Part shown: piece after piece, positions 28,150 to 60,877 of the stretch | Layout: the number at the start of each line of letters is the position of its first letter | How positions within the stretch are numbered: the first letter of the stretch is position 1 | Assembly: GCA_042569365.1 (NCBI GenBank) | Contig: JBHPHK010000004.1 | Coordinates: 6,113 to 70,112, forward strand | Reading direction: 5' to 3' | Origin: Patescibacteria group bacterium | GTDB taxonomy: Bacteria; Patescibacteriota; JAUYIX01; JBHPHK01 | DNA length: 64,000 nucleotides | The notes under the pieces: generated by a model | The model's input: the letters and a program-made list of their open reading frames with translations, nothing else | Databases searched by the model: none | What the model was told of the DNA's origin: nothing | Made by a program: the position numbers and the translations under genes

Positions 28150-28221
28150 TTAGTCGGTGACGCAGTCCTTGGAAATAACGGCACCGAAACATCGCGTGCC
28201 TGTACAGCCGAAGTGTCGCAT
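28150..28221 (-). CDS. mini-ORF, 23 aa, MRHFGCTGTRCFGAVISKDCVTD
   Basis: It is preceded by ACAAGGAAGG about 7 nt before the ATG. Its SD context and first 9 nt (ATGCGACAC) are shared with the upstream mini-ORF. It contains three Cys and is below the track cutoff. Confidence 0.45.
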   Translation of the reverse strand: MRHFGCTGTRCFGAVISKDCVTD

Positions 28222-28287
28222 AGAACACCTTCCTTGTTGAGGTTAACAGAATTGGTGGCCAGTCTTCGTTTCAAAGAAGCAGACGAG

Positions 28288-28395
28288 CTAGCCGCCGCCA
28301 GTGGAGGCGCCGAAGAGTATTCCGGTCGTTTCGGAGGTTTTGTTGCCAGCGGCGGTGTCTCTCATACCGCCGGCACAGCCGCCAAGGTGTCGCAT
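28288..28395 (-). CDS. mini-ORF, 35 aa, MRHLGGCAGGMRDTAAGNKTSETTGILFGASTGGG
   Basis: It is preceded by ACAAGGAGAA 6 nt before the ATG. It shares the motif TSE[TN]TGIL with the 47-aa ORF at 28929..29072. Confidence 0.5.
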   Translation of the reverse strand: MRHLGGCAGGMRDTAAGNKTSETTGILFGASTGGG

Positions 28396-28524
28396 AATAG
28401 TTCTCCTTGTAATGGTTTATTTTAAGGCTTAATAAGCCTGTTATTTGTAAGCTGCAATCCATTTATATTATAACCTCTGAAAATAGCAAAAACAAGCAAG
28501 GCGTATTATTTAGGTTTCACAATG

Positions 28525-28669
28525 AAAAAGCGCCCTCCCGGAGTGGTCACAAGGGGAGGGCGCGAAGTGATCTAATCCGGGAAAATTCCCGGAAAAGTGG
28601 GGGCATTACCATGTATGTGGCATTCGAGGGTGCCGCATACTTAGGTTAACGATCTCGAGGCAATCGTTA
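28525..28669 (-). ncRNA. candidate small RNA (~145 nt) or leader, class unknown
   Basis: A promoter lies directly upstream. Four hairpins can be drawn: AACGAT..ATCGTT, GTATGCGGCA..TGCCACATAC, CCGGGA..TCCCGG and GCGCCCTCCC..GGGAGGGCGC+TTTTT. The loops and linkers are C-rich (CCUCGA, CCCUCGA, GCCCCCA). No sensible ORF is present. Confidence 0.5.
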
Positions 28670-28675
28670 CTCAAT

Positions 28676-28704
28676 ATACTAGGTGCAATAGAAGTTTTTG
28701 TCAA
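28676..28704 (-). promoter_or_regulatory. sigma70-type promoter (TTGACA-17-TAGTAT)
   Basis: The minus strand has an exact -35 at 28699..28704 and a -10 at 28676..28681. Confidence 0.5.
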
Positions 28705-28711
28705 GAGTTTT

Positions 28712-28754
28712 AAGGTAAAAGAAATAGAGCGCTCCCTAGAAGGAAGCGCTCTAT
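28712..28754 (-). terminator. rho-independent terminator after the 47-aa/14-aa mini-ORF unit
   Basis: The minus strand reads ATAGAGCGCTTCC-TTCT-AGGGAGCGCTCTAT followed by TTCTTTT. Confidence 0.6.
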
Positions 28755-28801
28755 GATGCGTCAAATTTTTCGATTTTGTCCCTTGGGACGTTTGTACAGA
28801 C

Positions 28802-28846
28802 TTAGACGAACCCTGACTCGTATCTCTGCAAATCAGAAACCGTCAT
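28802..28846 (-). CDS. mini-ORF, 14 aa, MTVSDLQRYESGFV
   Basis: A perfect AAGGAGGAA lies 6 nt upstream of the ATG. The ORF sits 82 nt after the 47-aa ORF and just before the terminator. Confidence 0.35.
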   Translation of the reverse strand: MTVSDLQRYESGFV

Positions 28847-28928
28847 AGGGTGTTCCTCCTTGCGGATGTGCCGTCACGGCTGGATTTTTCTTTGTCAGGT
28901 TTGCGACAACTTGCTGTGGACTCAGCTC

Positions 28929-29072
28929 TTAGTTACCGCTTACCGCGTCGAGAAAGGCTTTGTTCCGGCAGTCCTCATTCGCGAGAATGCCAGTGTTTTC
29001 GCTTGTGTGCGCGTTCACCGCGACTTTCTTCTTGTTTTCGCTGGTGTCAGGGTCTTTATTATGGAGGTTCAT
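28929..29072 (-). CDS. mini-ORF, 47 aa, MNLHNKDPDTSENKKKVAVNAHTSENTGILANEDCRNKAFLDAVSGN
   Basis: This is an internal ATG of the 71-aa track ORF, preceded by AAGAGG 9 nt upstream. It is hydrophilic and shares TSENTGIL with the 35-aa mini-ORF. Confidence 0.5.
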   Translation of the reverse strand: MNLHNKDPDTSENKKKVAVNAHTSENTGILANEDCRNKAFLDAVSGN

Positions 29073-29170
29073 AGGCAAGTACCTCTTTTTTGTCTGCGCC
29101 GTATAAATACGGCTCTGGTAATGTTCGAGTTTCGGGAATAACACGACCCGGGGTAAGGAGTGTTTAAGTA

Positions 29171-29199
29171 AATATACTTTTCCCAGCGCGTTTTGTCAA
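29171..29199 (-). promoter_or_regulatory. sigma70-type promoter (TTGACA-17-TATATT)
   Basis: The minus strand has exact hexamers and lies about 90 nt upstream of the 47-aa ORF. Confidence 0.55.
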
Positions 29200-29211: not shown

Positions 29212-29243
29212 AAAAAAGCGCCGCTGATTAAGGCGACGCTTTT
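29212..29243 (-). terminator. rho-independent terminator after the 4-TM protein gene
   Basis: The minus strand reads AAAGCGTCGCC-TTAATCA-GCGGCGCT followed by TTTTTT. Confidence 0.6.
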
Positions 29244-29269
29244 ATGGTTTGATTTTTGAAGTTGGCTGG

Positions 29270-29707
29270 CTAGTCATCATAGTCCAAGTGCTGAAGTTTC
29301 AGATTAACTTCGCAGAGCCGAGCGGGAATTTCCGTGGCCCAGAAGCCTAATTGTAAGAAACAAATCGGAATGGGCCAGATCAGCCACAAAAGCAGTTTGA
29401 CGATCTTGGTGAGCGTCCGTTGCTGGTTGCAGAAAAGGTAAGAGAGAGTCAAGACCAGCATGAGCAGATGCGGGAAATAGTAGACGCCGACTTCGTTTAA
29501 GGAAAACTGGAAAATAATCCAGGGCGCTACCGTGTACAAGAAGGTGTCAGAGAGATTCAAAGGCTGAGTGTCAACGATTGTGAAGAACAGGGAAAGCATA
29601 AAAAATATGCACACGGCCGCAATCGTCACGCGTCCCGCATTGCCAGGACCGCCTTCCAGATCTTTAAGGCTGTTCAGCCATCTGATCAGCGAGAAAGTTC
29701 TTTTCAT
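29270..29707 (-). CDS. small polytopic membrane protein (145 aa, ~4 TM), hypothetical
   Basis: TAGGAGGCACCCAAA precedes the ATG. Four hydrophobic helices are visible, and I recognise no family motif. Confidence 0.65.
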   Translation of the reverse strand: MKRTFSLIRWLNSLKDLEGGPGNAGRVTIAAVCIFFMLSLFFTIVDTQPLNLSDTFLYTVAPWIIFQFSLNEVGVYYFPHLLMLVLTLSYLFCNQQRTLTKIVKLLLWLIWPIPICFLQLGFWATEIPARLCEVNLKLQHLDYDD

Positions 29708-29778
29708 TTTGGGTGCCTCCTATAGGTTACGGTTAAACAGAAAGATGGTTGTTATAAGTTGTTAAACAGCGATATATG

Positions 29779-29807
29779 ATGCTAACAAAATGCCCCGGCT
29801 TTGTCAA
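29779..29807 (-). promoter_or_regulatory. sigma70-type promoter (TTGACA-17-TAGCAT)
   Basis: It reads on the minus strand and lies about 70 nt upstream of ATG 29707. Confidence 0.5.
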
Positions 29808-31084: not shown

Positions 31085-31121
31085 GGTGGGCCTCCCCCGA
31101 CCTCCCGCCCCTAATTTTAGA
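31085..31121. repeat. GC-rich 37-nt element, copy 1
   Basis: The sequence GGTGGGCCTCCCCCGACCTCCCGCCCCTAATTTTAGA matches the copy at 35293..35329 at 35 of 37 positions. It lies in the queA-pgi intergenic region. Confidence 0.7.
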
Positions 31122-31142
31122 GGAAAGGAGATTAAATTTTGA

Positions 31143-32195
31143 TTAAATAATCAACATCGCATCCCCAAAACTATAGAAACGATACTTCTGTTTGATTGCT
31201 TCAGCGTAGGCTTGTTTGATAATTTCAATTCCAGAATCAGGGTCTGTAGAATCTGCGACAAAAGACGCAACAAGCGCTAGCAGCGAAGTTTTCGGCAAAT
31301 GGAAATTCGTAATCAGGCCATCAACAATTTTCCACTCATACCCAGGGTAAATATAAATGTCTGTTTCTCCTTCAAGTGCGCCTGATGCTCCAAATGTTTC
31401 CAAAACACGTGCTGCGGTTGTGCCCACGGAGATCACGCGTCTTTTTTCTTGTTTGGCTTGTTTGATTTTTTCCGCGATCTCAGGATCGATCTCAAAATAT
31501 TCAGAATGGATCTGATGTTCTTCAATCTCATCTGTCCGAATAGGCTGGAAAGTCCCAAGGCCTACATGCAAAGTCACGTACTCGATCTGCACGCCTTGTT
31601 TTTCTAAAGAAGCCAACAGCTCCGGCGTAAAATGAAAGCCGGCCGTGGGAGCGGCCGCCGATCCCTCTTTGTCAGGATCAGCAAAAACGGTCTGGTACTG
31701 ATCTTTGCGAGACTTTGAATTCGTAATGTAGGGAGGTAGGGGAACTTCGCCATACTTTTCAAGCTTTTTCCTAAAATCTGCACCCTTCACATTAAAACGC
31801 AGTAAATATGTTCCACCGGAGAGTTTTTCTTCCATCTTCGCACTCAATAAATCATCGCCAGTCTTGCTTATTATCAAATCCTCACCCAGCTTTAGCTTTT
31901 TACCAGGTTTTACTAGTGCTTCCCATGTGTCTTCACCTTTTTGTGCCAACAACAATATCTCAAACTCATGACTAGCCTCATTCACGGCCCGCAACCTTGC
32001 CGGGATCACTTTAGAATTATTCAAAACTAAAACATCGCCGTCTCGTAAGAACTGACCTATATTCTTGAATATATAGTGGCTAAAATTATTTGTCCCTCGC
32101 TCAAGATGAAAAAGACGCGACTCATCTCGCGGCTCTAAAGGTTCCTGGGCGATAAGCTCTTTCGGGAGCTCGTAATCAAAAAGATCACTCCGCAT
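31143..32195 (-). CDS. queA: S-adenosylmethionine:tRNA ribosyltransferase-isomerase
   Basis: It has the N-terminus MRSDLFDYELPKELIAQEP, the motif PLPPYI and the C-terminus YRFYSFGDAMLI, all typical of QueA. Confidence 0.9.
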   Translation of the reverse strand: MRSDLFDYELPKELIAQEPLEPRDESRLFHLERGTNNFSHYIFKNIGQFLRDGDVLVLNNSKVIPARLRAVNEASHEFEILLLAQKGEDTWEALVKPGKKLKLGEDLIISKTGDDLLSAKMEEKLSGGTYLLRFNVKGADFRKKLEKYGEVPLPPYITNSKSRKDQYQTVFADPDKEGSAAAPTAGFHFTPELLASLEKQGVQIEYVTLHVGLGTFQPIRTDEIEEHQIHSEYFEIDPEIAEKIKQAKQEKRRVISVGTTAARVLETFGASGALEGETDIYIYPGYEWKIVDGLITNFHLPKTSLLALVASFVADSTDPDSGIEIIKQAYAEAIKQKYRFYSFGDAMLII

Positions 32196-34392: not shown

Positions 34393-34458
34393 AGTGATGA
34401 ATCATAGCATTTTTACGGGCTCTATTCAAATTGTAGCATAAAGAAAAAGCGGACCTCG

Positions 34459-34956
34459 TTAAGATCCGCTTTTTGTGTCGATATACTGTATTACGAATTC
34501 CTTTCCAGGCAATTCGCTGGTCCTTTCCACCTCGATGACTCGATCAAGAAGATCGCGATCAAACTCACCGTTGAGAAACGCAGCGAGACCAAATGTGGCC
34601 TCTAGCAAGTTTCTGCGTACCCAACTATCGTCGTATTTTTTCCAGTTCTCTTCGGGATCAGACAGCTTGTGTTTGAGGAGCTGGTGCCAGACGTCATGTG
34701 CGTTTTTTTCTGCAATCTGTAAGAAGGTTTCCATAACCTTGGTTCTTGCAGCCTTGTGCACAAGGTCATCGCTCGTGAAGCAGACGAAACCGAAGCATTG
34801 CATGAGACTGCGACAAGCTACGACAACGTCGATTCTGTCGACGAGAACTTCAAGTTCTTTGATGAAGTTGTCCCAGTGAGACTTGGTAGGAGAGGTGTTC
34901 AGTTGAGCGACTGCTCGGAGGAAACTCATACGGTAAGTTTGCGTGTTCGCTTCCAT
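34459..34956 (-). CDS. hypothetical protein (165 aa), self-contained cassette
   Basis: My preferred start is ATG 34956, preceded by GGAGGTCGTT. The promoter is TTGACA-17-TAGGGT, with its -35 at about 35025. The terminator hairpin includes the stop codon. I recognise no family. Confidence 0.6.
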   Translation of the reverse strand: MEANTQTYRMSFLRAVAQLNTSPTKSHWDNFIKELEVLVDRIDVVVACRSLMQCFGFVCFTSDDLVHKAARTKVMETFLQIAEKNAHDVWHQLLKHKLSDPEENWKKYDDSWVRRNLLEATFGLAAFLNGEFDRDLLDRVIEVERTSELPGKEFVIQYIDTKSGS

Positions 34957-35061
34957 AACGACCTCCAGTTCAAGGTTATTTTTCGTAATGTACAAGACAC
35001 TCTACCCTAGCAGATTTAGCATTATTTGTCAATAGAATTGAACAAGTTTATTACTCAGAGC

Positions 35062-35090
35062 TTGACAATTCTTAAAATCCATGCTATGGT
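35062..35090 (+). promoter_or_regulatory. sigma70-type promoter (TTGACA-17-TATGGT) of the orphan RNA
   Basis: It has an exact -35 hexamer and a 17-nt spacer. No ORF follows. Confidence 0.55.
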
Positions 35091-35291: not shown

Positions 35292-35329
35292 GGGTGGGCC
35301 TCCCCCGACCCCCCACCCCTAATTTTAGA
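35292..35329. repeat. GC-rich 37-nt element, copy 2 (also a hairpin/terminator-like structure)
   Basis: The sequence is GGGTGGGCCTCCCCCGACCCCCCACCCCTAATTTTAGA. The stem GGGTGGG/CCCACCC is flanked by T-runs on both strands. It lies between the sRNA candidate and the VanW gene stop. Confidence 0.7.
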
Positions 35330-35379
35330 AAATAGGGAATGAAATAAATCTAAAATAACTATTAAACTATTTTAATATC

Positions 35380-37293
35380 TTAGTGCGAGAATTGCGTCAC
35401 TGGACGATAGCTGGAATAGAAGCTCTTACTATGTAAAACCGAGCCATCAGCGGCTGTCACCAAATGCTCCCAGGATGCTTTCATAGAATTGCCAGGACCC
35501 CAGCCCCAGTTGGATGGGATTGTTTCTTTAACTGTGCGTCCATCATCCGTTCCGTAAAATTCGAAGGTCAATGTATTTCCGGAGACAAATGTCTGAATCA
35601 AGACATAACTTGGCGTGTCATTGATGAACTTCAAGTCCACCGCACCTATATAAATAGTTGCGTCAGCACCAGCGCGACCATAATAATCATAATAAGAAAC
35701 AACGAAAGAATGATTGTGTCGCTCTGTTATATCTAGACCCGACCAGAAAGCGGCGCGGAAAGCGGTCGTTGAGACTTGGCATAAGCCTCCGCCCCATTCT
35801 GGGATAATTTTGTTTCCTTTAATGACAAGTTCCGGCAAAAATCCGCTATTTGCATCCACCTCTCCCAAGTGGTCATTGAATGAAAACTCTTCACCGGGCG
35901 CAATTAGGAGTCCGTCATATTTCTCAGCGCCAAATGCAATATTATAGCGGCGATTAGCGGGACTGCCTGAAAAATCTGAAGTTCCGCGTCCGATCAACTC
36001 TGTGATGCCCAAACCATCGAGCATAGACTCGTTAATATCTGCTTCCGAAGTAATAACATGAGCCGTAATTTCTCGCGGCTTGCTTGTTTGATTCAAACTG
36101 AATAGAGCATCTTCCATCAGCTCTTCCATGTCAACGGCCTGGCCTTTGGTGCTAGGCGTCTTGATGACTAAATCTCCATCTATCCAGTCCAATCGCAGGT
36201 CATCTCCTGGGTTATTTAATGCTGCTCCGACTTTATTAACTAAAGCCCGTTGGAGACTGTCCGGCTTGATGCCGGCAAAACTTTGGACAGGAGAACCAAG
36301 TGTTGCATGCGACCCCAGACCAATATACGCGGCATAGTGACTAGGGCTAGGCAATGTAGTCTGCAGCGGAGGCTTGGCCGGGTTACTGCCCTCATAAAGT
36401 TCATGCGGAATCATCAGAAGGCGCGTCTGTAGATCATCGGACAGATAATTCGCTTCAATATATTGAATGCCCTGATCTTGCAACTCTTCGGTATTTTCTA
36501 AAATAGATGAATCAAGATTCTCAAAACCGATCCACTGCTGGATCTCATTAGCGGCATATTGCCACTTTTGATTTTCATAGGTAACGATTACAGGCTTGCT
36601 CCAGAGCGTGCGGGCGACCTGTTGCGCTTTCAAAGTGTCCCATTTTGTAACCTGCGGCTGTGTTTCGGCAAACCAGACTTTGATCGGCTCAGTATTGAGT
36701 TGATTAAAGTTTTCACGTAGGTTGATCAAGAGTAGATCACGATTAGCCTCATGACCAACCTTTTCCGGCGTGACTTCTAGTCCACCATTCGCAAACTTGA
36801 TAGTCGCATTGACCGCTGGGCGTTCAATATCTTTGAAATTCTCAGAAAGCAACGCCAAGAGTTTATTCTCATCAAAAGAGTAAGAAAGCTCCAGATCGTT
36901 TTTATCAAAACAGGCTACTACGCGGTTGCTCAGGTTAGCTACAAAATTATTGGGATGGCTGTAGCTTAGCGCCTCGTCAACAGAGCCGATGATGTTAAAA
37001 GCCAGGTTGATATCCGCCGGGAAGAAAGAGAATTCCTTATCATCCGTTAATAAAACTATAGGTTTTTCCAAAAAATAGTCTATCTGCTCTTGTAGGGTGT
37101 ATAAAGCGGCCTGCTGCGTCTGTCCGCTAACTGAAACAGGGCCGATCGACAAATTAGCCATCAGCTGGTCATTATACTCAGCGCTATTTACTTGCGCTAA
37201 AAACCCAAAAAAACAAAGAAGAACAGCGAGTCCAACGATTAGAAAAACTAGCCGCACCGAGAATAAGTTGCGTTGATTTGATGATTCTTCCAT
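35380..37293 (-). CDS. VanW-family protein (N-terminal TM anchor)
   Basis: It has the C-terminal VanW signature (GGGLCQVSTTAFRAAFWSGLDITERHNHSF) and an N-terminal hydrophobic anchor. Confidence 0.8.
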   Translation of the reverse strand: MEESSNQRNLFSVRLVFLIVGLAVLLCFFGFLAQVNSAEYNDQLMANLSIGPVSVSGQTQQAALYTLQEQIDYFLEKPIVLLTDDKEFSFFPADINLAFNIIGSVDEALSYSHPNNFVANLSNRVVACFDKNDLELSYSFDENKLLALLSENFKDIERPAVNATIKFANGGLEVTPEKVGHEANRDLLLINLRENFNQLNTEPIKVWFAETQPQVTKWDTLKAQQVARTLWSKPVIVTYENQKWQYAANEIQQWIGFENLDSSILENTEELQDQGIQYIEANYLSDDLQTRLLMIPHELYEGSNPAKPPLQTTLPSPSHYAAYIGLGSHATLGSPVQSFAGIKPDSLQRALVNKVGAALNNPGDDLRLDWIDGDLVIKTPSTKGQAVDMEELMEDALFSLNQTSKPREITAHVITSEADINESMLDGLGITELIGRGTSDFSGSPANRRYNIAFGAEKYDGLLIAPGEEFSFNDHLGEVDANSGFLPELVIKGNKIIPEWGGGLCQVSTTAFRAAFWSGLDITERHNHSFVVSYYDYYGRAGADATIYIGAVDLKFINDTPSYVLIQTFVSGNTLTFEFYGTDDGRTVKETIPSNWGWGPGNSMKASWEHLVTAADGSVLHSKSFYSSYRPVTQFSH

Positions 37294-37388
37294 GTACTTT
37301 GACAGTACCAGTTAAAAAACCTCTCTGTCAAGCCTAGAAAGGAAAAAAGCACCATCTTAGAGACAGTGCTTTTTAATGTCAGAAGTTG

Positions 37389-37838
37389 TTATTCTGATGT
37401 CTTGTGCTTGATCTCCCAGCCCGTTGGGAGGATCAGATCCGTCATCAGGAGAGTCTTGGAATCGTTATGGAGAACTCCCGACGATGCCGAGAGAATTCTC
37501 AAGTAATATTCCATGTTCGTGAGCAGATCATCAGGCAGTTCTTTGTCGGGCTGCAAGAGATCATGCTGCGGATGTACGTTGACCCTCGGCATTTTCGTCT
37601 TTCCGTCAACAACGACTTTTCTGACAGGAACGATCAGCGCATAATGTTTGTAGATGAGTTTGACAAACCCTTTTGGCGCCAGAGAGTTGGGATTAAAGAG
37701 ATAGATCTCTTTGTTGCTGAGTTGTTCGTCCAGGCTTTCGTATGAAAAACGAATACCTTCAAACTTCTCAGCCAAGGTTCTGGTGTATGCTCGGATCATA
37801 ACCTTAAGAGCAGGGTCAGTTACAGATTTCAAATCCAT
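37389..37838 (-). CDS. hypothetical protein (149 aa), self-contained cassette
   Basis: My preferred start is ATG 37838, preceded by GGAGGTACCAAA. The promoter is TTGACA-17-TACCAT (37883..37911). I recognise no family. Confidence 0.6.
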   Translation of the reverse strand: MDLKSVTDPALKVMIRAYTRTLAEKFEGIRFSYESLDEQLSNKEIYLFNPNSLAPKGFVKLIYKHYALIVPVRKVVVDGKTKMPRVNVHPQHDLLQPDKELPDDLLTNMEYYLRILSASSGVLHNDSKTLLMTDLILPTGWEIKHKTSE

Positions 37839-37949
37839 TTTGGTACCTCCGTATGTAAATTGGTAAGAGTGCAAAGTTTTTCATGGTAGCTCGTAGGGGC
37901 AGTATTGTCAAATGAAAAAGCGCCTCGTAAAGAAGCGCTTTAAGGGGGT

Positions 37950-38345
37950 TTATTTTTTGATTAATCTATAGAACAGACTGCCAAAACAGATAGCACTGAC
38001 GATAGTGGTACAAATGTACGTTGCTATGACAATGAGGCATGATTTGTCGCTATAGATAGTATAGCTTGGAGCTACGCAGTAGACGCAGACGATACCGATA
38101 ATCAGATGATAAATCATATAGATTATGTTGCAGCGTCGGAAATATCTGTAAGGTATATCTGTAAACAGCGTTGTCAACGTTGTGAAAGCCACAAAAGCAA
38201 TGATCAGATATGACCAAATGCCGACAACTTCCACTTTATCAGTGAGTGCGCCGTGCATGATGCCACAGATCAGGAGAATTGATAATAGTACTGTTGCTCC
38301 GAACATGGTCCAGAGGCTAGCAACAACTTCACTTTTTGCAGACAT
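37950..38345 (-). CDS. hypothetical 4-TM membrane protein (131 aa), self-contained cassette
   Basis: AGGAGGCATTCT precedes the ATG. The promoter is TTGACA-17-GAGAAT (38394..38422). The terminator at 37915..37940 has a 7-bp GC stem plus a U-run. Confidence 0.6.
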   Translation of the reverse strand: MSAKSEVVASLWTMFGATVLLSILLICGIMHGALTDKVEVVGIWSYLIIAFVAFTTLTTLFTDIPYRYFRRCNIIYMIYHLIIGIVCVYCVAPSYTIYSDKSCLIVIATYICTTIVSAICFGSLFYRLIKK

Positions 38346-38568
38346 AGAATGCCTCCTTTCGTGGGTTATTAAGTTGGGAAATATCGAATTATCATTCTCC
38401 TCTTATCGCAGGAATCTGTCAAATGAAAAAGCACTGATGCTATGCTATAAGTCAGCTCGGATAATGATTGTCATGGAACTGGATCCAGCCTATTGCAGCT
38501 CTCCCTCTTTTTCATAGTCGGAGAACATATCAATATAAAAACCGCCTTTGCCGGCGGTTTTAAGGAAG

Positions 38569-41292
38569 CTATTTCTTTACTTTAGCGGTTGCTTTCTTGC
38601 GCGGCTTAGATTTTGCGGTAGCTTTCACTCTTTCTTTTGTTCCTGTGAAAACTAGCTCATCTGCTTTCAGGTCGATCGTAATAGTCTGACCAGACTTAAA
38701 CTTGCCGGCGAGTAGCATTTCCGATAACGGATTTTCAATCCGGCGCTGAATTTCGCGACGTAGCGGACGCGCCCCAAAACTTGGGTCAAAACCTTTTTTG
38801 GCTAAGAAAGTTTTGGCCTTACCTGTGATTTTCATTTTGATATTTTGGGCACGTAAGAGTTTTTCTAAGTCTTTGAGCATCAATGTGACAATCTGTTTGA
38901 TCTGCTCCTCGGTCAGGGCGTGGAAGACAATAATCTCATCGACTCGGTTTAAAAATTCAGGACGGAAATGTTTTTTAAGCTCTTCTAACAAATGCTCGCG
39001 GAGCTTCTCGTGCTTGCGGTCCGCTCGTTCTTGTTTAGTATTATCATTGTCATCCTCAAAACCAAAACTCTTCGCTTTCGAGTCCTGGATCATTTCAGAG
39101 CCGATATTGGAAGTCGCGATGATAATCGTATTTTTGAAATCGACTGTGCGGCCCTTTGCGTCAGTCAAACGGCCGTCTTCCATGATTTGTAACAGGATAT
39201 TGAAGACTTCGGGATGAGCCTTCTCGATTTCGTCGAGTAAGATGACGCTGTAAGGTTTGCGGCGTACTTTCTCGGTGAGCTGTCCGCCTTCTTCATAGCC
39301 GACATAACCTGGAGGAGAACCGACGAGTCGAGAGACTGTGTGTTTTTCCATATATTCGGACATATCGACGCGGATCATCGATTCTTCGTCTCCAAAGATA
39401 AGCTCTGAGAGCGCTTTGGAAAGTTCAGTCTTACCAACTCCAGTCGGTCCCAAGAAAATAAACGAACCGATCGGGCGATTAGGGTCTTTCAGGCCAGCGC
39501 GTCCACGGCGGACGGCTTCAGAGATCGCTTTGATCGCCTCATTTTGTCCGATGACACGTTCGTGCAAGCGATCCTCTAATTTCAAAAGTTTATCAAGCTC
39601 TTCTTCAGCAAGTTCTGTCACCGGAATACCGGTCGACTCTGCGACAACTTCTTCAATATCGCGCGGAGAAAGGACGACGTTGCCTTGGACAGATGTCTTC
39701 TTCCACTCTTCGCGAAGTTCGCGGAGTTCATCTTCGGCCTCGGCTAATTTTTTCTGTAAGTTACGGGCGCGTGTTTTAGTTTTACCTTTCTTGGCAGACT
39801 CCAACTCTTTAGCGAGCTGTTTGATAGACTTCTCGCGTTCTTTAAGTTCTTCGGGAGTATTGATATTAGCTAAACGGATCTTGGCGGCGCCCTCGTCGAT
39901 TAGGTCGATCGCTTTATCAGGCAAGAAACGATCATTAACATAACGATCGGAAAGGGAAGCGGCCGCAACGATTGCTTCGTCTGAGATCTCGACTTTGTGG
40001 TGCGCTTCGTATTTATCACGGAGGCCGTGGAGGATTTGGATAGTTTCCTCGACACTTGGCTCGCTAACAATAATAGGCTGGAAGCGGCGCTCGAGCGCAG
40101 CATCTTTTTCAATATGTTTTTTATATTCATCTAAAGTCGTAGCACCAATCATCTGAAGATCGCCGCGAGAAAGTGAGGGTTTGAGCATGTTCGAAGCATC
40201 CATTGCGCCTTCAGCAGCTCCGGCACCTACGATAGTGTGAAGCTCATCTATAAAGATCACAATATCTTTCTTGGCAGCTTCGATTTCCTTCATAACCTTC
40301 TTCATGCGGTCTTCAAAGTCACCACGGTGCTTGGTACCGGCGATCATGCTGGAAAGATCGAGACTAATAACTCGTTTATCTTTTAAGGTCTCTGGAATAT
40401 TTCCGCTGACGATGCGTTGCGCCAAACCTTCTGCGATCGCTGTCTTACCTACGCCTGGTTCACCGATCAAGACGGGGTTGTTTTTGGTACGACGAGAAAG
40501 GATCTGAACGACACGTCCGACTTCACGAGCGCGTCCCACGACAGGATCAAGCTTTCCTTCCTTCGCCATTGAAGTAAGGTCGCGAGAGTATTCATCGAGA
40601 GTTGGTGTAGTGCTGCGTCGTTTTTTGCGCGGCTTATCTCCAGTTCCAATAAAGTTAATAACGGCACTGCGCGCTTTCGTATGATCAACTGCATATTTAT
40701 CAAAGACTTGCGCGGCCATACCTTCACCTTCACGGATCAGGCCGAGCAAAATGTGCTCCGAGCCGACATAGTTGTGCTCCATATTGCGGGCTTCATGGAA
40801 AGCAAGCTCCAAAACCTTCTTGGCACGCGGAGATAGGTCAAACTGGCGTGTCTCAGCGTCGCCTTTCTGAATATTTTCTTCGATATACGCCTTAAGATCA
40901 TCAGTTTTAATACCCAGATCCTCAATAATCTTTACAACCACTTCTTTTTCTTCCAGCAATCCCAAAAGCAAATGTTCTGTGTCGATATGGCGCGCTTTAT
41001 AATGATGCGCGGCTTGGGCAGACTCCTCCAAAACCTTCTTCGCACGTTCTGAGAAAAACTCAACGATATTAACCTGCTCGGGCTGAGAAGCGCGTTGCGA
41101 CTGGGGGGAGAGAGGGGCTCCACCGGAAGCACCGGCGCCGCCCATCATAAATGAGTTTAAAAACGAGTCGTTACCAAAAAACATGCGTTCTTCTGCACAC
41201 GTATGACAAAGGTGTAGATAGGATGTGCGACCGTTGACGGTCTGACGGATTGAGATTGCCGCTGGACGGCGGCCACAAGATTGACAGAGCAT
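38569..41292 (-). CDS. clpC: ATP-dependent Clp protease ATP-binding subunit ClpC with N-terminal CxxC..CxxC zinc-ribbon extension
   Basis: It has two AAA+ modules ([15 protein letters not shown]; [14 protein letters not shown]), Clp_N repeats and a short coiled-coil middle domain. The N-terminus is [11 protein letters not shown]...HLCHTCAEE. Confidence 0.9.
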
Positions 41293-41358
41293 ATATTAAG
41301 GTTAACTAGCTTATATAATGATAGCGCGAAACAGGGTAATCATCATGTGGAAGTAAAA

Positions 41359-41385
41359 TTAGCAGTCTCAATAATAGAGTGCTAA
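41359..41385. promoter_or_regulatory. CIRCE-like inverted repeat (HrcA operator)
   Basis: The sequence TTAGCAGTC-N9-GAGTGCTAA has one mismatch to the consensus TTAGCACTC-N9-GAGTGCTAA. It lies just downstream of the clpC promoter. Confidence 0.75.
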
Positions 41386-41399
41386 TTATCAGCTACTTT

Positions 41400-41428
41400 A
41401 TTGTATATAGAGGCATTAGTCATGTCAA
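41400..41428 (-). promoter_or_regulatory. sigma70-type promoter of clpC (TTGACA-17-TACAAT)
   Basis: The minus strand has exact hexamers. The CIRCE element starts about 15 nt downstream of the -10. Confidence 0.65.
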
Positions 41429-48350: not shown

Positions 48351-48452
48351 CGTGCTCGCACTGAATGAATGAGCTGTCCGAATATTTGCATGAAAATGCT
48401 CAGTGCCACAGTCCTTTGGACAAATTAATATTTAAGAGACTTTAACGTTGCA

Positions 48453-48584: not shown

Positions 48585-48610
48585 ATTTCTGTCATCTACT
48601 TCGATCAAAG

Positions 48611-48644
48611 GGCGTAATCTATCATGGAGATTGCGCCTTTTTTC
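48611..48644 (+). terminator. leader terminator/attenuator upstream of purC
   Basis: GGCGTAATCT-ATCATGG-AGATTGCGCC is followed by TTTTTT, 60 nt before the purC ATG. No promoter fits in between. Confidence 0.6.
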
Positions 48645-48703
48645 ATTTCGTGTTATTTTTACTAACCAATTTTGACGACCCTTACCAATAAAAGGAGGCA
48701 TGT

Positions 48704-49648
48704 ATGGATTTTCCATATCACCCAAAATGTGTTCCTTTGAAAGAGATTTCACAGGGCAAGATCAGAACGATCTTTGCCGCGGGAACACGCAACAACGAAG
48801 AACAAGACAAGCTGTTCATCGTAGCATCCGACAGAATCTCGGCCTTTGATTTTGTCTTACCGACTCGGATCCCGGAAAAAGGAGGGCTCCTCACCAAAGT
48901 AACCGATCACTGGCTGAGGAAAGTGCTGACAGGCATTTCTCACCATTTGATCACGACCGAGTGGGATGAGCTCCCAGATAACCTCCGGCTGTATCTCGAA
49001 CAGCGCAACTTGCGCTCGCAGCTTGAGGGCCGATTCAGCTTGGTGCGCAAGGCCGAAGTGATCCCCATCGAGTGTATCGTGCGGGGCTACATCACGGGCT
49101 CTGGCTGGAAAGACTATCAGCGAACTGGCATGGTTTGCGGATTGCCGCTTCCATCAGGCTTAGTCGAAAGTGAAAAACTGCCAGAACCGCTCTTCACTCC
49201 CTCGACCAAAGCTTCCCAAGGCGAACACGATGAAAACATCAGTTACGAGCAGACAGTGGAGATCTTGGAAGAAAGATATCCCGGCCGTGGAGAACGTCTG
49301 GCAGAGGCGCTGCGCGACAAGAGTTTGCAGCTGTACCAGACGGGAGCTGAGCATGCGCTCGCTCGCGGGATCATCATCGCCGATACCAAATTCGAGTTTG
49401 GCTTAATCGACGGTGAAGTCGCTCTGATCGACGAGGTTCTGACTCCAGACTCTTCAAGATTCTGGCCGAAGGACACCTATCAGGCGGGCCGCTCGCAGGA
49501 GAGCCTGGACAAACAACCGGTGCGCGACTGGCTGACTGCCAACTGGGACAGGACTGGCGATCCGCCGGAACTTCCAAACGAAGTCGTGCAGCAGACTACA
49601 GAGCAATATCGGGAAGTTTGCAGACTCCTAACCTCCGATGAACAATAA
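48704..49648 (+). CDS. purC: SAICAR synthetase
   Basis: It has the motifs LFIVASDRISAFD and GIIIADTKFEFG, typical of PurC. AAGGAGG lies 5 nt upstream of the ATG. Confidence 0.85.
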   Translation: MDFPYHPKCVPLKEISQGKIRTIFAAGTRNNEEQDKLFIVASDRISAFDFVLPTRIPEKGGLLTKVTDHWLRKVLTGISHHLITTEWDELPDNLRLYLEQRNLRSQLEGRFSLVRKAEVIPIECIVRGYITGSGWKDYQRTGMVCGLPLPSGLVESEKLPEPLFTPSTKASQGEHDENISYEQTVEILEERYPGRGERLAEALRDKSLQLYQTGAEHALARGIIIADTKFEFGLIDGEVALIDEVLTPDSSRFWPKDTYQAGRSQESLDKQPVRDWLTANWDRTGDPPELPNEVVQQTTEQYREVCRLLTSDEQ

Positions 49649-51113: not shown

Positions 51114-51143
51114 AAAAGCCCCTCTCGGATGAGAAGGGCTTTT
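51114..51143. terminator. bidirectional terminator between convergent genes
   Basis: The hairpin AAAAGCCCCTCTC-GGAT-GAGAAGGGCTTTT has A/T runs on both sides. Confidence 0.65.
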
Positions 51144-51161
51144 GCGTAATCGGTTTCGTGG

Positions 51162-52634
51162 TTAGTAGCGGTTGATCCACTTAGGCTTCCAGGAGTTGAT
51201 GATCATGATTTTGTAATCACCCGTCGGATCTTCGAAAAGATCTTTCAGGCAAGAAAATGTGATCGACCACCTCTTGGTTGCCTTGAACTTGAGTGAAGGT
51301 CCCGCGGAGAGCAAGTGATGTCCGGATTCCGGGATGTAGCCAGAAATATGCGGGCCAAACCACCAATCACCAGCACCCCAGCGGATGCTTGTGTCGGTGA
51401 ACCAGCCTACGTAGTCAAGTTTGTGATCCGGTCTCGTTACAGCCCAGTTGAACTGGTTGTAGAAGAACAGATCACCGTACTTGGCTGGCCAACCACTGGC
51501 GAAACTGAGCTCTGGATCGATTCCAATAAACTCCCAGTTGCCTTTGGTGTGATCCCAGCTGGTCATCAGGCGTGGCTCCCAAGCGAGTTTGAAAAAACTA
51601 GTGTTTTTCCCAAATCCGATTTTGCCGGCCTTGGCTTCGGGCAAAAGTGAAGTAGATCCACAGGCTACCCAGCCAGACTTAAGCCAGGTTTTGTTGTAGC
51701 GCAGCGAGAGGCTGTCTTCGCCAGTGCCACTGTCGGTGTAGAAGAACACAAGCTGATCCTTAGACGGATCAATCAGTTCTTCAGCGTACGTCGCAATAGC
51801 TGGAGTCAGCACGATCAGACAGCAAAGCGCAACTGAAGTCATAAATGCTTTCTGAAGCTGCGGGCCGCGGAAGCTGTTCTGCATGACAGTCTTAACGAGC
51901 GAGAAAATCTTAGAGTAATCTTGGACTTTCTCTTCGGCAAGTTCTTGCCTATTTTCTGCACGTTGTTTTAAGAACGCCGCTTCGCGGCCGTCGCCGACAT
52001 AGCAGAATAATCCGATCGGCCACATGGCCAGAAAAGGAATAAACAACTGCCAGTCTTCGGCAAAGGCCTGGACAAAATCGCGGTTATGTCGTTCACGGAT
52101 TCGCAACACGAAGCCGCGGAGGGCGGCGAGCATGAAGGCCAGATAGAAAATCACGGCCGACCATTTGAGCGCTGCCCAATTGGTGACATGATCAAGCGTT
52201 GGTTTCTGCGCTTTGTTGTAGGCGACAAAAGCCGTTCGCAAATCGTCAATCTGGGGAAGCTGTCTTGTGTCACGATCCATTTCTGCGATGGCTCCAAAAG
52301 CCATCGGGACGCCGCGCTCCATGAATTCGATCAGCGTTAAACGCATCTCGATGTATTCATCGGCTGTCAGCGCTTCACCACGTTCCTGGATGGTGCTGAG
52401 GATTTCCTGTCTGGTTGCCCCCGCATCTTTTACAAGAGCAGCACGGCCGTCCTGGTCGAGAGCGGACCATTGATTGGTCGGATACCGATCAGGGCCGTTC
52501 ACAGAAACGGTGACCCAGGCAACCAGCACAAAAGCCAGAAGCCCTGCGACGAAAAACCAGCGTTGTGTACTGTTTTTGACGTCATCGAATTGCACGCACG
52601 AGTTGTGCGGGCGGTGGTTATTCCAGTGTTCCAT
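51162..52634 (-). CDS. hypothetical membrane protein (490 aa), GC-rich, aromatic-rich C-terminal domain
   Basis: AGGAGGTACCC precedes the ATG, and the promoter is TTGACA-17-TATTTT (52710..52738). It has 4-5 TM helices. The 200-aa W/F/Y-rich C-terminal domain ends ...WKPKWINRY. Confidence 0.65.
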   Translation of the reverse strand: MEHWNNHRPHNSCVQFDDVKNSTQRWFFVAGLLAFVLVAWVTVSVNGPDRYPTNQWSALDQDGRAALVKDAGATRQEILSTIQERGEALTADEYIEMRLTLIEFMERGVPMAFGAIAEMDRDTRQLPQIDDLRTAFVAYNKAQKPTLDHVTNWAALKWSAVIFYLAFMLAALRGFVLRIRERHNRDFVQAFAEDWQLFIPFLAMWPIGLFCYVGDGREAAFLKQRAENRQELAEEKVQDYSKIFSLVKTVMQNSFRGPQLQKAFMTSVALCCLIVLTPAIATYAEELIDPSKDQLVFFYTDSGTGEDSLSLRYNKTWLKSGWVACGSTSLLPEAKAGKIGFGKNTSFFKLAWEPRLMTSWDHTKGNWEFIGIDPELSFASGWPAKYGDLFFYNQFNWAVTRPDHKLDYVGWFTDTSIRWGAGDWWFGPHISGYIPESGHHLLSAGPSLKFKATKRWSITFSCLKDLFEDPTGDYKIMIINSWKPKWINRY

Positions 52635-52794
52635 GGGTACCTCCTAAAGGTATAAAAGATTGTAAAGACCGATTACTTTCCTCCTCCTGTTTTTAGGGCG
52701 GAAGAGATTAAAATAACACACAAAATAATATTTGTCAATCAAAAAAATGCCAGTTTTCTGATACTGACATTTCTTGAATATTTTTCCTAATTAA

Positions 52795-58820: not shown

Positions 58821-58860
58821 AACATGCTAATTATGCGCTATAGAGCTTTCTATGGCCATA

Positions 58861-58889
58861 TTGACAAAAGTCCCTTTCAGATCTATAGT
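58861..58889 (+). promoter_or_regulatory. sigma70-type promoter (TTGACA-17-TATAGT)
   Basis: It has exact hexamers and lies 104 nt upstream of the ATP-grasp ATG. Confidence 0.5.
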
Positions 58890-58959
58890 ATAACTACTTA
58901 TTTCTTTAGCGCTAAAACTTATGACGCTTTCAGCAATTTGGCAAGACTAATTATGAAAT

Positions 58960-58992
58960 AAGGTCGGCTAATAACCGACCTTATTTTTATTT
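58960..58992 (+). terminator. hairpin + U-run immediately before the ATP-grasp start (attenuator or terminator of the upstream gene)
   Basis: AAGGTCGG-CTAATAA-CCGACCTT is followed by ATTTTTATTT, which abuts ATG 58993. Confidence 0.5.
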
Positions 58993-59943
58993 ATGAATCA
59001 AATTATTATAGGCTGCCCATATGATAGGATCATTGATCTTAAAAGTGCCCTTAAGACTATCGCGAAGGGAAGTGTTATCGTAGATGTGAACGACGTGTCC
59101 GCAGTAGACTTCGATGCTATTTACGTTGGATCCGATTTCAAGCCTATGCGTATTTCAGATTTTAACGCGTCTTTCATACGTTACCCGTACGACTTAATTC
59201 CTCCACACACCAGTAACTATTCCCGTCGAGAGAAGACAGAGCTTCTCAAAACACTCGCATTGCTTTTTTCTGATGTGTCGATTAATAAATTTTCTGAGAG
59301 CCTTCGGGCCAGGAATAGAATTTACTCTCTAAAGGTTGCTGCCAGTTGCGGGCTTAATATTCCTAGTTCACTTATAGTCAGTCGTAATATTGGTAATTTC
59401 AAGACAGACTTATTTTCTGACAAAGTCGTAACGAAAAGTTTAGGGAATTGTTATTATGCTAAACGACTCAATAACGAAGAAGAATTGACCAAGAAGCAAT
59501 TGTTTTTTACCAAAGATGGCAATGACTCGGCCTATATTTATCCTGCCCATGCAATAAAAAACGCTGAAGAACTTAACGCGCACATAGAAAGTTTTCAAGT
59601 ATCCTTTCTCCAGAATTGTGTAAAGGGTAAGGAGTTTCGTATTTATCTTATCGGTGAAAAAATCTTTTTCTACAGTCGCGAGAAAGTTGACGGCATAGAT
59701 AAGAGTGCAGGCAAAAAAGTGCCCATAGATTCGCCTATAGACAACAAAGAAAAAGTAAAACTATTTACGCTACTAAAGAAGCTTAAACTTCAATATTTAA
59801 ATATCGATGCTGTCATAGATTCGGCGACTAAAAAGTTTATTGTCATCGACATTAATCCTTTTGGTTCTTTGCCGGACTACGACACTGATCCCGAGCCGAC
59901 TCTCGAATTAGCCAGGCTTATTTTAAAAGACAAGAAAAAATAA
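58993..59943 (+). CDS. ATP-grasp ligase (RimK / peptide-ligase-like), AT-rich
   Basis: 316 aa. The patterns NRIYSLKVAASCGLNIPSSLIV, VVTKSLG, EFRIYLIGEKIFFYSRE and YLNIDAVIDSATKKFIVIDINPFGS resemble ATP-grasp central and C-terminal lobes. The call is by motif only. Confidence 0.6.
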   Translation: MNQIIIGCPYDRIIDLKSALKTIAKGSVIVDVNDVSAVDFDAIYVGSDFKPMRISDFNASFIRYPYDLIPPHTSNYSRREKTELLKTLALLFSDVSINKFSESLRARNRIYSLKVAASCGLNIPSSLIVSRNIGNFKTDLFSDKVVTKSLGNCYYAKRLNNEEELTKKQLFFTKDGNDSAYIYPAHAIKNAEELNAHIESFQVSFLQNCVKGKEFRIYLIGEKIFFYSREKVDGIDKSAGKKVPIDSPIDNKEKVKLFTLLKKLKLQYLNIDAVIDSATKKFIVIDINPFGSLPDYDTDPEPTLELARLILKDKKK

Positions 59944-60172
59944 AACATAAAAAAGTCGCACTCTCCCAACAGATGTCGGTACAGTTTTTAGTGTTTAAAT
60001 CTTAATCGTACAAGAAACAATTTATTTATCTGATTTTTTTGTTCAGAGGTTTTTAAAAATCCTTTATCTTAATTTCAACAGACTATTGTGGTAAACTAAC
60101 AACAGGTTATGCACTAACGCATCTTGTGTTAGTTGTACTAGATATCAATAATTCACATAACTATACTATACT

Positions 60173-60415
60173 ATGAAATTTACTTCTTTCGGAATCATGC
60201 AATTGCCTGATGGATCATATCTGCATGCACCAGGCTTTACTAAGAAGATCGTTCAAAAACTTCCCATGCCAGCCGCTGCTATTAAGGGAACTTTCACAGG
60301 AGAATGGGGGAAGTCTGATGACCTGCAAGTAGAAAAAGGGATGAGAATCCTAGGGGTCAATAGATTGGGCAGAGAATTGGGACTTGATCTAGAACGAAAG
60401 ACAGGGACTTTCTAA
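60173..60415 (+). CDS. small protein A (80 aa), member of a local 3-gene family
   Basis: The ORF begins MKFTSFGIMQLPDGSYLHAPGF...GEWGKSDDLQVEKGMRILG. TATACT lies 5 nt before the ATG, so the mRNA may be leaderless. It is collinear with protein C. Confidence 0.5.
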   Translation: MKFTSFGIMQLPDGSYLHAPGFTKKIVQKLPMPAAAIKGTFTGEWGKSDDLQVEKGMRILGVNRLGRELGLDLERKTGTF

Positions 60416-60498
60416 GGTAAATTCTGTCATCTTCGCTTGAGATTAATCTCATATAAACACGAGAAAAAAGCTGCGCCGAACAGAGAGGGGCAGTTTTT

Positions 60499-60573
60499 TG
60501 GTAGTCCCTACGGGAATCGAACCCGTATTTCCACCTTGAAAGAGTGGCGTCCTAACCGTTAGACGAAGGGACC
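60499..60573 (-). tRNA. tRNA-Glu (anticodon UUC), CCA encoded
   Basis: The reverse strand reads GGTCCCTTCGTCTAACGGTTAGGACGCCACTCTTTCAAGGTGGAAATACGGGTTCGATTCCCGTAGGGACTACCA. It folds as a cloverleaf with anticodon loop CTTTCAA and T-loop GGTTCGATTCC, and closely resembles bacterial tRNA-Glu. Confidence 0.9.
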
Positions 60574-60611
60574 AAAATAATCTTAAAGCAGCAGGCTTAG
60601 CTGCTCCGCCT

Positions 60612-60640
60612 ATGCTACTAGTTGCCGATGAGTTTGTCAA
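60612..60640 (-). promoter_or_regulatory. sigma70-type promoter of tRNA-Glu (TTGACA-17-TAGCAT)
   Basis: It reads on the minus strand and lies about 38 nt upstream of the tRNA 5' end. Confidence 0.55.
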
Positions 60641-60709
60641 CATGAACACACTGTCTATTTAAAGTATAATAAAAACAGAATCAACCAACTATAAAGGAGG
60701 TGTTAAGTA

Positions 60710-60877
60710 ATGCCAATTAAACCAATAAGAGGATGGTTCGGATTTCTTCCACTGCCGAACGGCAATTCAATAACTTTCCCGCTTAAGCCAAAGGCTGCAG
60801 AGGCTCTGCTGGAAGTTCTCAAAAGACATAGTTTACCTTTTGATGTTAGAAGATCTGTTGGTCCACCTAAGATTTAG
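60710..60877 (+). CDS. small protein B (55 aa), member of a local 3-gene family
   Basis: AAAGGAGG lies 9 nt before the ATG. The ORF is MPIKPIRGWFGFLPLPNGNSITFPLKPKAAEALLEVLKRHSLPFDVRRSVGPPKI. A terminator follows at 60892..60916 (ACGCCGG-CTCGT-CCGGCGT+TTTT). It is below the track cutoff. Confidence 0.55.
   Translation: MPIKPIRGWFGFLPLPNGNSITFPLKPKAAEALLEVLKRHSLPFDVRRSVGPPKI

Follow-up and report, generated by a model that had tools for sequence, protein, structure and literature searches.

Residual Shine-Dalgarno use is tied to accessory orphan genes in a 64-kb stretch of a Patescibacteria genome

In a 64,000-nucleotide (nt) stretch of the Patescibacteria group bacterium assembly GCA_042569365.1 (contig JBHPHK010000004.1, positions 6,113 to 70,112), hereafter the window, gene starts fall into two classes that differ in their use of the Shine-Dalgarno (SD) sequence. 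Most genes start without an SD, while a small set, mainly of genes without a known family, carries a strong one. The reading preferred here, to which a probability of roughly 0.6 is attached, is that the SD is the expression signal of fast-turnover accessory genes in a translation system that is otherwise SD-independent. Core genes of this member of the Candidate Phyla Radiation (CPR) would initiate without SD pairing by three routes: on leaderless mRNAs, whose AUG follows the -10 box at 5-10 nt, on leadered mRNAs with G-poor, A/U-rich and unstructured start regions, and by re-initiation at stop/start junctions inside operons. A small, lineage-specific accessory set would be expressed from plug-in single-gene units composed of a sigma-70 promoter, an open reading frame (ORF) and an intrinsic terminator, in which a G-poor leader of 40-75 nt exposes one GGAGG(U) 5-9 nt from the AUG. 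Genes in these units would rely on canonical pairing of SD and anti-SD, have start regions that are somewhat more structured and GC-rich than those of core genes, and would be young or fast in turnover: orphans of atypical composition whose presence varies from one related genome to another. Core genes avoid SD-like sequence both upstream of their starts and internally.

The window has a G+C content of 44% and a GC-skew minimum at ~8 kb. The genes rpmH-rnpA-yidD-yidC-jag lie on one side and dnaA-dnaN-recF on the other, so that the window spans a chromosomal origin (oriC). The neighbourhood of ruvB, a PH-domain gene, recF, dnaN and dnaA is common to Doudnabacteria-type CPR metagenome-assembled genomes (MAGs), and in a scan of one genome per GTDB species the best identity to RuvB was 68%, with no close relative. 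An Rfam scan of the window, down to E <= 0.5, returned tRNA-Glu only, and the window holds no rRNA gene. The analysis covers 56 curated gene starts, with rpmH and ruvC added; the SD-proximal ATGs were taken for 34956 and 37838 (genes are named by start position), and the PKD/LTD gene start was set at 27955, where a signal peptide is encoded, and not at 28228. Duplex free energy (dG) was computed for positions -20..-1 against the canonical 16S tail 5'-CACCUCCUUU-3'. A dG <= -10 kcal/mol was counted as a strong SD, the 1760 other (non-start) ATGs of the window served as controls, and the NCBI annotation (locus tags ACFL1U_013xx-015xx) was used as an independent check on starts.

Strong SDs precede 7 of the 56 starts compared with 1.1% of control ATGs, which makes them ~10x commoner at starts (binomial p = 3.5e-6). 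These seven span -10 to -15.5 kcal/mol, a single start lies between -5 and -10, and the remaining 48 are weaker than -5 kcal/mol and mostly around 0. The 49 non-SD starts pair even more weakly than control ATGs (median +0.1 vs -2.5; p = 1.5e-10), and the intermediate class (-10 to -5) is depleted, comprising 1/56 starts compared with 17.6% of controls (p = 2.5e-4). Within the window, SD strength is bimodal with a nearly empty middle class, and the two discrete classes of start proposed in the first-pass annotation are borne out statistically. All SD sites that it listed are present, those of the mini-ORFs 28221, 28395, 28846 and 29072 and of genes 29707, 34956, 37838, 38345 and 52634 on the minus strand and those of purC 48704 and 60710 on the plus strand. 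In 18 of the 20 SD-less genes compared, and in 4 of the SD class, the NCBI protein is identical to the curated one, which largely removes the concern that starts had been chosen wrongly by eye; the PKD/LTD start was corrected as given above. In all seven SD genes, GGAGG ends 5-9 nt before the ATG. The units are as follows, with GC3 denoting G+C at third codon positions and aa amino acids.

SD cassette 1, 29214..29807, minus strand: promoter TTGACA-17-TAGCAT at 29807-29779; leader ~70 nt; SD GGAGG 29720-29716, 8 nt before ATG 29707, dG -10.2 kcal/mol; ORF 29270-29707, 145 aa, hydrophobic, GC3 0.64, same protein annotated by NCBI, no Pfam, NCBIfam, PHROG or PADLOC family; terminator 29243-29214.
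SD cassette 2, 34444..35031, minus strand: promoter TTGACA-17-TAGGGT at 35031-35003; SD GGAGGT 34966-34961, 5 nt before ATG 34956, dG -10.5 kcal/mol; ORF 34459-34956, 165 aa, GC3 0.54, no family match; terminator 34474-34444.
SD cassette 3, 37344..37911, minus strand: promoter TTGACA-17-TACCAT at 37911-37883; SD GGAGGT 37850-37845, 7 nt before ATG 37838, dG -10.9 kcal/mol; ORF 37389-37838, 149 aa, GC3 0.55, same start in NCBI; terminator 37374-37344.
SD cassette 4, 37917..38422, minus strand: promoter TTGACA-17-GAGAAT at 38422-38394; SD AGGAGG 38357-38352, 6 nt before ATG 38345, dG -11.9 kcal/mol; ORF 37950-38345, 131 aa, four hydrophobic segments, same start in NCBI, no family match; terminator 37941-37917, abutting the -35 box of cassette 3.
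purC, 48690..49648, plus strand: SD AAAGGAGG, GGAGG 48694-48698, 5 nt before ATG 48704, dG -11.8 kcal/mol; GC 54%, GC3 0.61.
SD cassette 6, 51114..52738, minus strand: promoter TTGACA-17-TATTTT at 52738-52710; SD AGGAGGT 52645-52639, 5 nt before ATG 52634, dG -11.6 kcal/mol; ORF 51162-52634, 490 aa, GC 52%, GC3 0.60, N-terminal transmembrane (TM) helix; terminator 51143-51114.
SD cassette 7, 60643..60915, plus strand: promoter TGAACA-16-TATAAT at 60643-60670; SD AAGGAGGTG at 60694-60702, GGAGG 9 nt before ATG 60710, dG -15.5 kcal/mol; ORF 60710-60877, 55 aa, pI 11; terminator 60889-60915.

Six of the seven SD genes, purC being the exception, are single-gene units with a TTGACA-type -35 box, 16-17 nt to the -10 box, an ATG start and a GC-hairpin terminator. 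The predicted promoters would give leaders of 40-75 nt, in which the SD is almost the sole G-rich patch, and the SD would be what makes these genes translatable. The SDs often extend to GGAGGU or AAGGAGGUG, as the canonical tail predicts. The description of this class as mostly genes of unknown function holds: among the seven proteins, the Pfam, NCBIfam, PHROG and PADLOC libraries matched PurC alone, so that 6/7 SD genes are without a family match compared with 5/49 others (Fisher p = 9e-5). The class is also shifted in composition, with GC3 above 0.535 in five of the seven (0.54-0.64) and in none of the 49 SD-less genes (maximum 0.53; p = 5e-6), and the higher G+C content noticed at first reading in purC and 51162..52634 is real (54% and 52% vs ~44% for the window). 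The promoter and terminator layout attributed to the class was found by consensus scans for the cassettes, although purC has no clear promoter and the promoter of 60710 is TGAACA-16 and not TTGACA-17.

Individual units add further detail. The 149-aa protein of cassette 3 is a strict orphan, since a HMMER search against 1.84 billion representatives returned only itself, and a search of 5.8 billion proteins with the 490-aa protein of cassette 6 likewise recovered nothing but the query. AlphaFold2 single-sequence models of the 165-aa protein (all-helical, low confidence; predicted local distance difference test (pLDDT) 55) and the 149-aa protein (pLDDT 34) are too poor for fold searches. For 51162..52634, the NCBI form is a 394-aa protein that begins at an unremarkable internal ATG (52346). 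Because an in-frame TAG falls inside the SD, translation could begin no earlier than ATG 52634. With its SD-led first ATG and the added TM helix, the long form seems the likelier one; the deposited protein is thus probably truncated at its N-terminus. The leader of this gene also contains a second SD-like sequence, AGGAGGAGG (~52687-52679, minus strand), in an SD-like run, AGGAGGAGGAAA (52676-52690, minus strand), ~50 nt upstream of the start and followed by no start codon, which could be a standby site or chance. Cassettes 3 and 4 (37838 and 38345) are adjacent and bracketed by a 14-nt inverted match (CAGTGCTTTTTAAT / ATGAAAAAGCACTG) at 37364-37377 and 38423-38436. These half-terminator-like edges may be a trace of insertion of the pair, or just another terminator. 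The sole SD-class gene of known function is purC, whose nearest non-self homologues are 54-55% identical, the named ones coming from Coriobacteriia and not from the CPR. A protein considered as a closer relative (P0123, 436 aa) was rejected, being only 49% identical, internally duplicated and encoded on a non-CPR contig (L081, ENA ERZ28622705 scaffold_174, 9718-11028); the duplication concerns its C-terminal half and may be an assembly or gene-fusion artefact.

The first-pass annotation had suggested imported cassettes, and this is partly supported. The units are self-contained and accessory in character, as judged from promoter, leader and terminator, the lack of family matches, GC3, and presence/absence variation. 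The signs of import itself did not materialize: the 490-aa and 149-aa orphans have no donor homologues, viral-contig scans for four SD genes found no viral relatives, no direct or inverted repeats flank any SD cassette, and the Pfam matches of the window include no integrase or transposase. Sequence weakly points to import from outside the CPR for purC only, and at 54-55% identity to Coriobacteriia not to a recent event. The units may have arrived with the SD in place, or an SD may just offer a new and poorly optimised gene the simplest route to translation.

The SD-less class contains the core genes, and the absence of SDs at their starts is confirmed. Its description as a single class was imprecise, as these starts fall into three layouts: leaderless, leadered without SD, and operon-internal. 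Sixteen genes start within 15 nt of, or overlap, an upstream stop, and an SD is found in 0/16. A loose scan for a -10-like box 3-13 nt upstream gives ~19 leaderless-like genes, only six or seven of which are clear: VanW, ruvB, a pgi-like gene, an MBL hydrolase, 45310, yebC and 60173. In these, the -10 box, in many cases accompanied by TTGACA-17 or an extended TG, ends 5-10 nt before the ATG. The proposal that VanW and 45310 look leaderless is upheld, with predicted -10 boxes 8-10 nt before the ATG, and the NCBI starts agree for VanW and genes of the same layout. At least 14 genes have leaders of 35-100 nt without an SD behind good TTGACA-17 promoters. Representative cases are as follows.

16432..26294, plus strand: operon-internal starts 18032, 19532, 20579, 21579, 23888 and 24813 (glgA), 0-15 nt from or overlapping the upstream stop.
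35380..37330, minus strand: VanW, leaderless type, TTGACA-17-TACTGT ending 8 nt before ATG 37293.
ruvB 34392: leaderless layout, TGnTATGAT, 8 nt.
pgi-like 31050: leaderless layout, TATACT, 6 nt.
45310: leaderless layout, TATATT/TATTAT, 8-10 nt.
MBL 53320: leaderless layout, TACAAT, 6 nt.
38569..41428, minus strand: clpC, leadered SD-less type, promoter TTGACA-17-TACAAT 41428-41400, leader ~100 nt, ATG 41292.
prsW 42735: leadered SD-less, promoter 42832-42804.
rpmH 6360, 54221 and 56625: leadered SD-less.

At positions -20..-1 of SD-less starts G makes up only 6-10% and the sequence is A/U-rich, with A at 40-50% from -3 to -7 and no sharp positional signal (n=48). These regions are also weakly folded, with a mean minimum free energy (MFE; -30..+30) of -5.6 kcal/mol compared with -10.9 for internal 60-mers (p = 8e-12); the corresponding value for SD-class starts is -8.2 kcal/mol (p = 0.03 against the SD-less starts). 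Searches for VanW found no relative closer than 33%. Directly after the clpC promoter, the leader carries a CIRCE-type inverted repeat (41359-41385; TTAGCACTC-N9-GAGTGCTAA, one mismatch) that is conserved in the relative described below (L082) and points to regulation of clpC by HrcA in the lineage. The genes 54221-56368 and 56625-58820 are tandem carboxypeptidase-regulatory-domain paralogues with long stretches of 73-79% DNA identity, each preceded by a separate TTGACA-17 promoter and an SD-less leader of 46 nt.

A functional CCUCC anti-SD is likely in this lineage. Inside SD-less coding regions, AGGAGG occurs 3 times against 16.6 expected from synonymous-codon shuffles (observed/expected (O/E) 0.18, z = -3.65) and GGAGG has an O/E of 0.65 (z = -3.25). 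Both are the most depleted among the permutations of their bases, the others not being significantly depleted, and such avoidance in core coding regions makes a working anti-SD likely. The same internal depletion, at the level of Firmicutes, is seen in 14 other CPR loci. Perfect, well-spaced SDs on proteins that have diverged beyond recognition, and SD extensions (GGAGGU, AAGGAGGUG) that run as the canonical tail predicts, support the same conclusion. It is also conceivable that the anti-SD has been lost, and that the AGGAGG sites are non-functional leftovers in genes recently imported from SD-using donors. The foreign-looking GC3 of several SD genes, the placement of the nearest relatives of purC in the Actinobacteria, and the frequent failure to detect an anti-SD in Parcubacteria (see below) would suit such relics. 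Yet a perfect, optimally spaced core is retained in the SDs of all seven genes and in the strongest of those at mini-ORFs, even though the proteins are without detectable homologues. This argues for a long stay in the genome or for fast divergence while the SD remained under selection. Core genes, moreover, specifically avoid the canonical hexamer both in their coding regions and before their starts, and a relative's own cassette is also SD-led; this explanation is regarded as highly improbable.

That relative is represented by two short Logan contigs (L082 and L083; run DRR203669) at ~75% nucleotide identity to the window. All core genes shared with it are SD-less there too, including clpC on L082. 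The 60710 cassette is absent from L083, where window positions 60647-60941 are replaced by ~65 nt. Conversely, L082 carries an insert of ~500 nt between hsp20 and clpC, at a place where, in the window, nothing but the hsp20 terminator precedes the clpC promoter, and this insert encodes, on the opposite strand, a family-less protein of 102 aa with the SD AAGGAGA-7-ATG. Both SD cassettes that can be compared with the relative (60710 and the 102-aa gene of L082) are thus presence/absence variants; the remaining five SD loci of the window lie outside its contigs.

The 14 other CPR loci, fetched via RuvB, extend the pattern. Only 2% of their starts reach dG <= -10, compared with 19% in Firmicutes, and the strong-SD ORFs are short and mostly family-less: among 10 scanned SD-led CPR ORFs, the gene of L082 being one of them, a significant Pfam match was obtained for one only (TsaE). 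A homologue in other loci exists for 6/22 strong-SD ORFs compared with 145/232 of the rest (p = 0.002), in a crude test that uses simple ORF calls, an SD-favouring start choice, one-gene neighbourhoods and short proteins. In Firmicutes and Chloroflexi the direction is opposite, with strong-SD ORFs better conserved. The crudeness of this test is one of several points that weigh against reading the SD as the signal of fast-turnover accessory genes. The distribution comes from no more than 56 genes of a single window, and the promoters, transcription starts and terminators are predictions of consensus scans only. The composition shift is not universal, since 38345, 60710 and the relative's SD cassette have ordinary or low GC3. 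Orphans without an SD are present as well (52795, 60173, 61055), as are SD-less variable genes (GDPD in the relative; an ATP-grasp gene and an 80-aa ORF, 58993-60415, in the window), so accessory genes are not all SD-led. As to the anti-SD, about half of the 16S genes of Parcubacteria are reported to contain no detectable CCTCCT (PMC9297842), and depletion of SDs inside genes is an imperfect indicator that an anti-SD is active (PMC4943179).

Some of these points would favour an explanation without any link to gene origin, in which an SD arises wherever a leadered monocistronic start is too structured or GC-rich, the tie to orphans is an accident of a small sample, and SD strength forms a continuum genome-wide. 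The more stable folding of SD-class starts, their location in GC-richer genes, the SD-less orphans and variable genes, and a class defined by seven genes only are all consistent with it. A continuum is hard to reconcile with the significant depletion of the intermediate dG class, and an accident with the strength of the association with family-less status and GC3. The inverse relation between SD and conservation, moreover, recurs in 14 independent CPR loci and not in Firmicutes or Chloroflexi, and both comparable SD cassettes vary by presence and absence. Absence of an origin link is therefore considered unlikely. The association of the SD with accessory genes is best described as a local, well-supported pattern with a modest echo across the CPR, and not as a demonstrated genome-wide rule.

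Several elements of this picture are established elsewhere, including SD-poor lineages, non-SD initiation on unstructured leaders, leaderless mRNAs and mixed start models (PMC6028130, PMC5397173, PMC7797042). As in the Bacteroidia (GeneMarkS-2 group B; Flavobacterium johnsoniae rpsU/bS21; PMC7797042, PMC9976891, PMC6028130), nearly all genes of the window, including operon-internal ones, are SD-less, start regions are A-rich, G-poor and unstructured, and few genes have a strong canonical SD. Unlike there, no positioned A-rich motif was detected at the 48 starts examined, many genes of the window look leaderless, and the SD genes are orphan accessory genes and not ribosomal-protein genes. With GeneMarkS-2 group C (Actinobacteria, Deinococcus-Thermus; PMC6028130), the window shares -10 boxes 6-8 nt upstream of a first-gene AUG (VanW, ruvB, pgi-like, MBL, 45310) and the combination of leaderless and SD-led starts in one genome. 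Operon-internal and leadered genes of group C, however, use SDs, whereas those of the window do so in 0/16 internal cases and most leadered genes go without. Neither model therefore fits, the SD-less internal genes excluding group C and the orphan nature of the SD genes excluding the Bacteroidia. The SD-less starts also resemble the non-SD genes of Nakagawa et al. 2017 (PMC5397173) in being strongly unstructured relative to internal sequence, although that work describes a general cross-phylum trend in which residual SD genes are not tied to accessory or orphan status. Tsurumaki et al. 2022 (PMC9297842) treated the same superphylum and often could not detect the anti-SD in Parcubacteria, implying reduced SD use; they analysed rRNA and ribosomal proteins and not mRNA start signals, and the AGGAGG avoidance and maintained SDs suggest that the lineage of the window keeps its anti-SD. 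A literature search found no paper on SD use by gene class, or on residual SD in relation to orphan status, in the CPR. The split is a variant of initiation patterns known in other SD-poor bacteria.

The Bacteroidia also suggest how the two classes could reflect regulation. Ribosomes might be mostly blind to SDs through an occluded anti-SD, with a sub-population or condition in which it is free switching the SD genes on together as a post-transcriptional regulon. In the Bacteroidia, rpsU with its strong SD is better translated by bS21-less ribosomes (PMC9976891, PMC7797042, PMC13000453). The sharpness of the split, the active avoidance of SD-like sequence at core starts, and the lack of SDs on rpmH and operon-internal genes would be in keeping with such a mechanism. 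In the window, rpmH is also the only ribosomal protein gene, and its want of an SD speaks against a parallel with rpsU. The SD genes share neither a function nor a regulator site, and the SD is the only motif that they have in common. The strong depletion of AGGAGG inside coding regions is more in line with an anti-SD open to pairing in general than with an occluded one, and the genes for bS21, bS18, bS6 and 16S rRNA lie outside the window. A regulated class of this kind seems quite improbable.

Putative coding sequence with an SD in the window extends to mini-ORFs, which are organized as follows.

28056..28470, minus strand: two-ORF mini-operon, terminator ~28095-28056.
28288-28395, minus strand: mini-ORF of 35 aa (MRHLGGCAGG...), SD AAGGAGA, dG -8.3 kcal/mol.
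28150-28221, minus strand: mini-ORF of 23 aa (MRHFGCTGT...), SD AAGGAAGGTG, dG -11.2 kcal/mol.
28724..29199, minus strand: mini-operon, promoter TTGACA-17-TATATT at 29199-29171, terminator 28754-28724.
28929-29072, minus strand: mini-ORF of 47 aa, weak SD AGAGGT, dG -7.2 kcal/mol.
28802-28846, minus strand: mini-ORF of 14 aa, SD AAGGAGGA, dG -11.2 kcal/mol.

The putative peptides of 28150-28395 are paralogous, sharing the N-terminus MRH(L/F)G(G)C.G and a Cys/Gly-rich composition, and are absent from the NCBI annotation; they may be small secreted peptides or precursors of ribosomally synthesized and post-translationally modified peptides. Between the two mini-operons, at 28530-28704 on the minus strand, a TTGACA-17-TAGTAT promoter is followed ~130 nt later by an GCGCCCTCCC/GGGAGGGCGC terminator with no plausible ORF between them; this unit is a candidate small RNA and has no Rfam match. 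Two promoter-to-terminator units also occupy the 840-nt spacer between hisS and purC (47863-48703). The first (~47888-48299) contains a 5-codon ORF with a perfect SD (AAAGGAGGC-5-ATG at 48010; dG -12.5 kcal/mol) that was not on the earlier list, and the second (48322-48641) an SD-less 43-aa ORF (48453-48584) with a C-terminal hydrophobic tail. Among the variable SD-less genes, 58993-59943 (316 aa) shows a weak likeness to ATP-grasp ribosomal-peptide maturases (TIGR04187/04184, E ~1e-8, far below cut-off) and is followed by the 80-aa ORF. Its promoter lies at 58861-58889, a strong hairpin (58955-58987) ends 5 nt before the ATG, and the whole 58861-60415 block is absent in L083.

The window also contains repeated sequence. 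A 66-nt C-rich element (GGTGGGCCTCCCCCGACCyCCCrCCCCTAATTTTAGA...) occurs at 31085-31150 and 35293-35358, with 79% identity, downstream of queA and VanW, and an adjacent 35-nt AT-rich repeat is present in three copies (28004-28038, 35339-35373, 47845-47879). On the minus strand the 35293-35358 copy is the VanW terminator, and a plus-strand promoter, TTGACA-17-TATGGT (35062-35090), points into the element. The suggested connection between these elements and the SD class was not sustained. Neither strand folds significantly compared with shuffles (z ~ -1), and any pairing with SDs would involve nothing beyond the CCUCC core; a role as an anti-SD-mimicking small RNA was rejected because the element does not fold beyond shuffles, exists in two copies only and doubles as the VanW terminator. 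The sequences noted as shared between unit junctions, a 16-mer (37906 and 38417) and a 14-mer (28521 and 37911), are exact and beyond chance. They consist of a terminator U-tract, 'CAT' and, in two of three, the -35 TTGACA, and common descent was rejected as their explanation, since the identity stops at the -35 box and functional convergence suffices.

A more far-reaching view is that a functional anti-SD, ignored and avoided by the core genome, has made the SD a portable channel for fast-turnover orphans (e.g., host-interaction or surface proteins) that could be tuned via anti-SD accessibility, giving a two-tier translation system, perhaps widely in the Patescibacteria. This is a long shot at present. 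The CPR/Patescibacteria make up a large share of bacterial diversity that is hardly represented in culture; their ribosomes are reduced, and mRNA recognition in them is essentially unstudied. If the SD is confined to accessory orphans, gene starts in these genomes would need to be called with mixed models, as the 394-aa NCBI call for 51162..52634 illustrates. The SD would then also be an inexpensive sequence flag by which genes of recent gain or restricted to a lineage could be picked out in CPR MAGs, and the finding would bear on why the anti-SD stays conserved in lineages that hardly use it.

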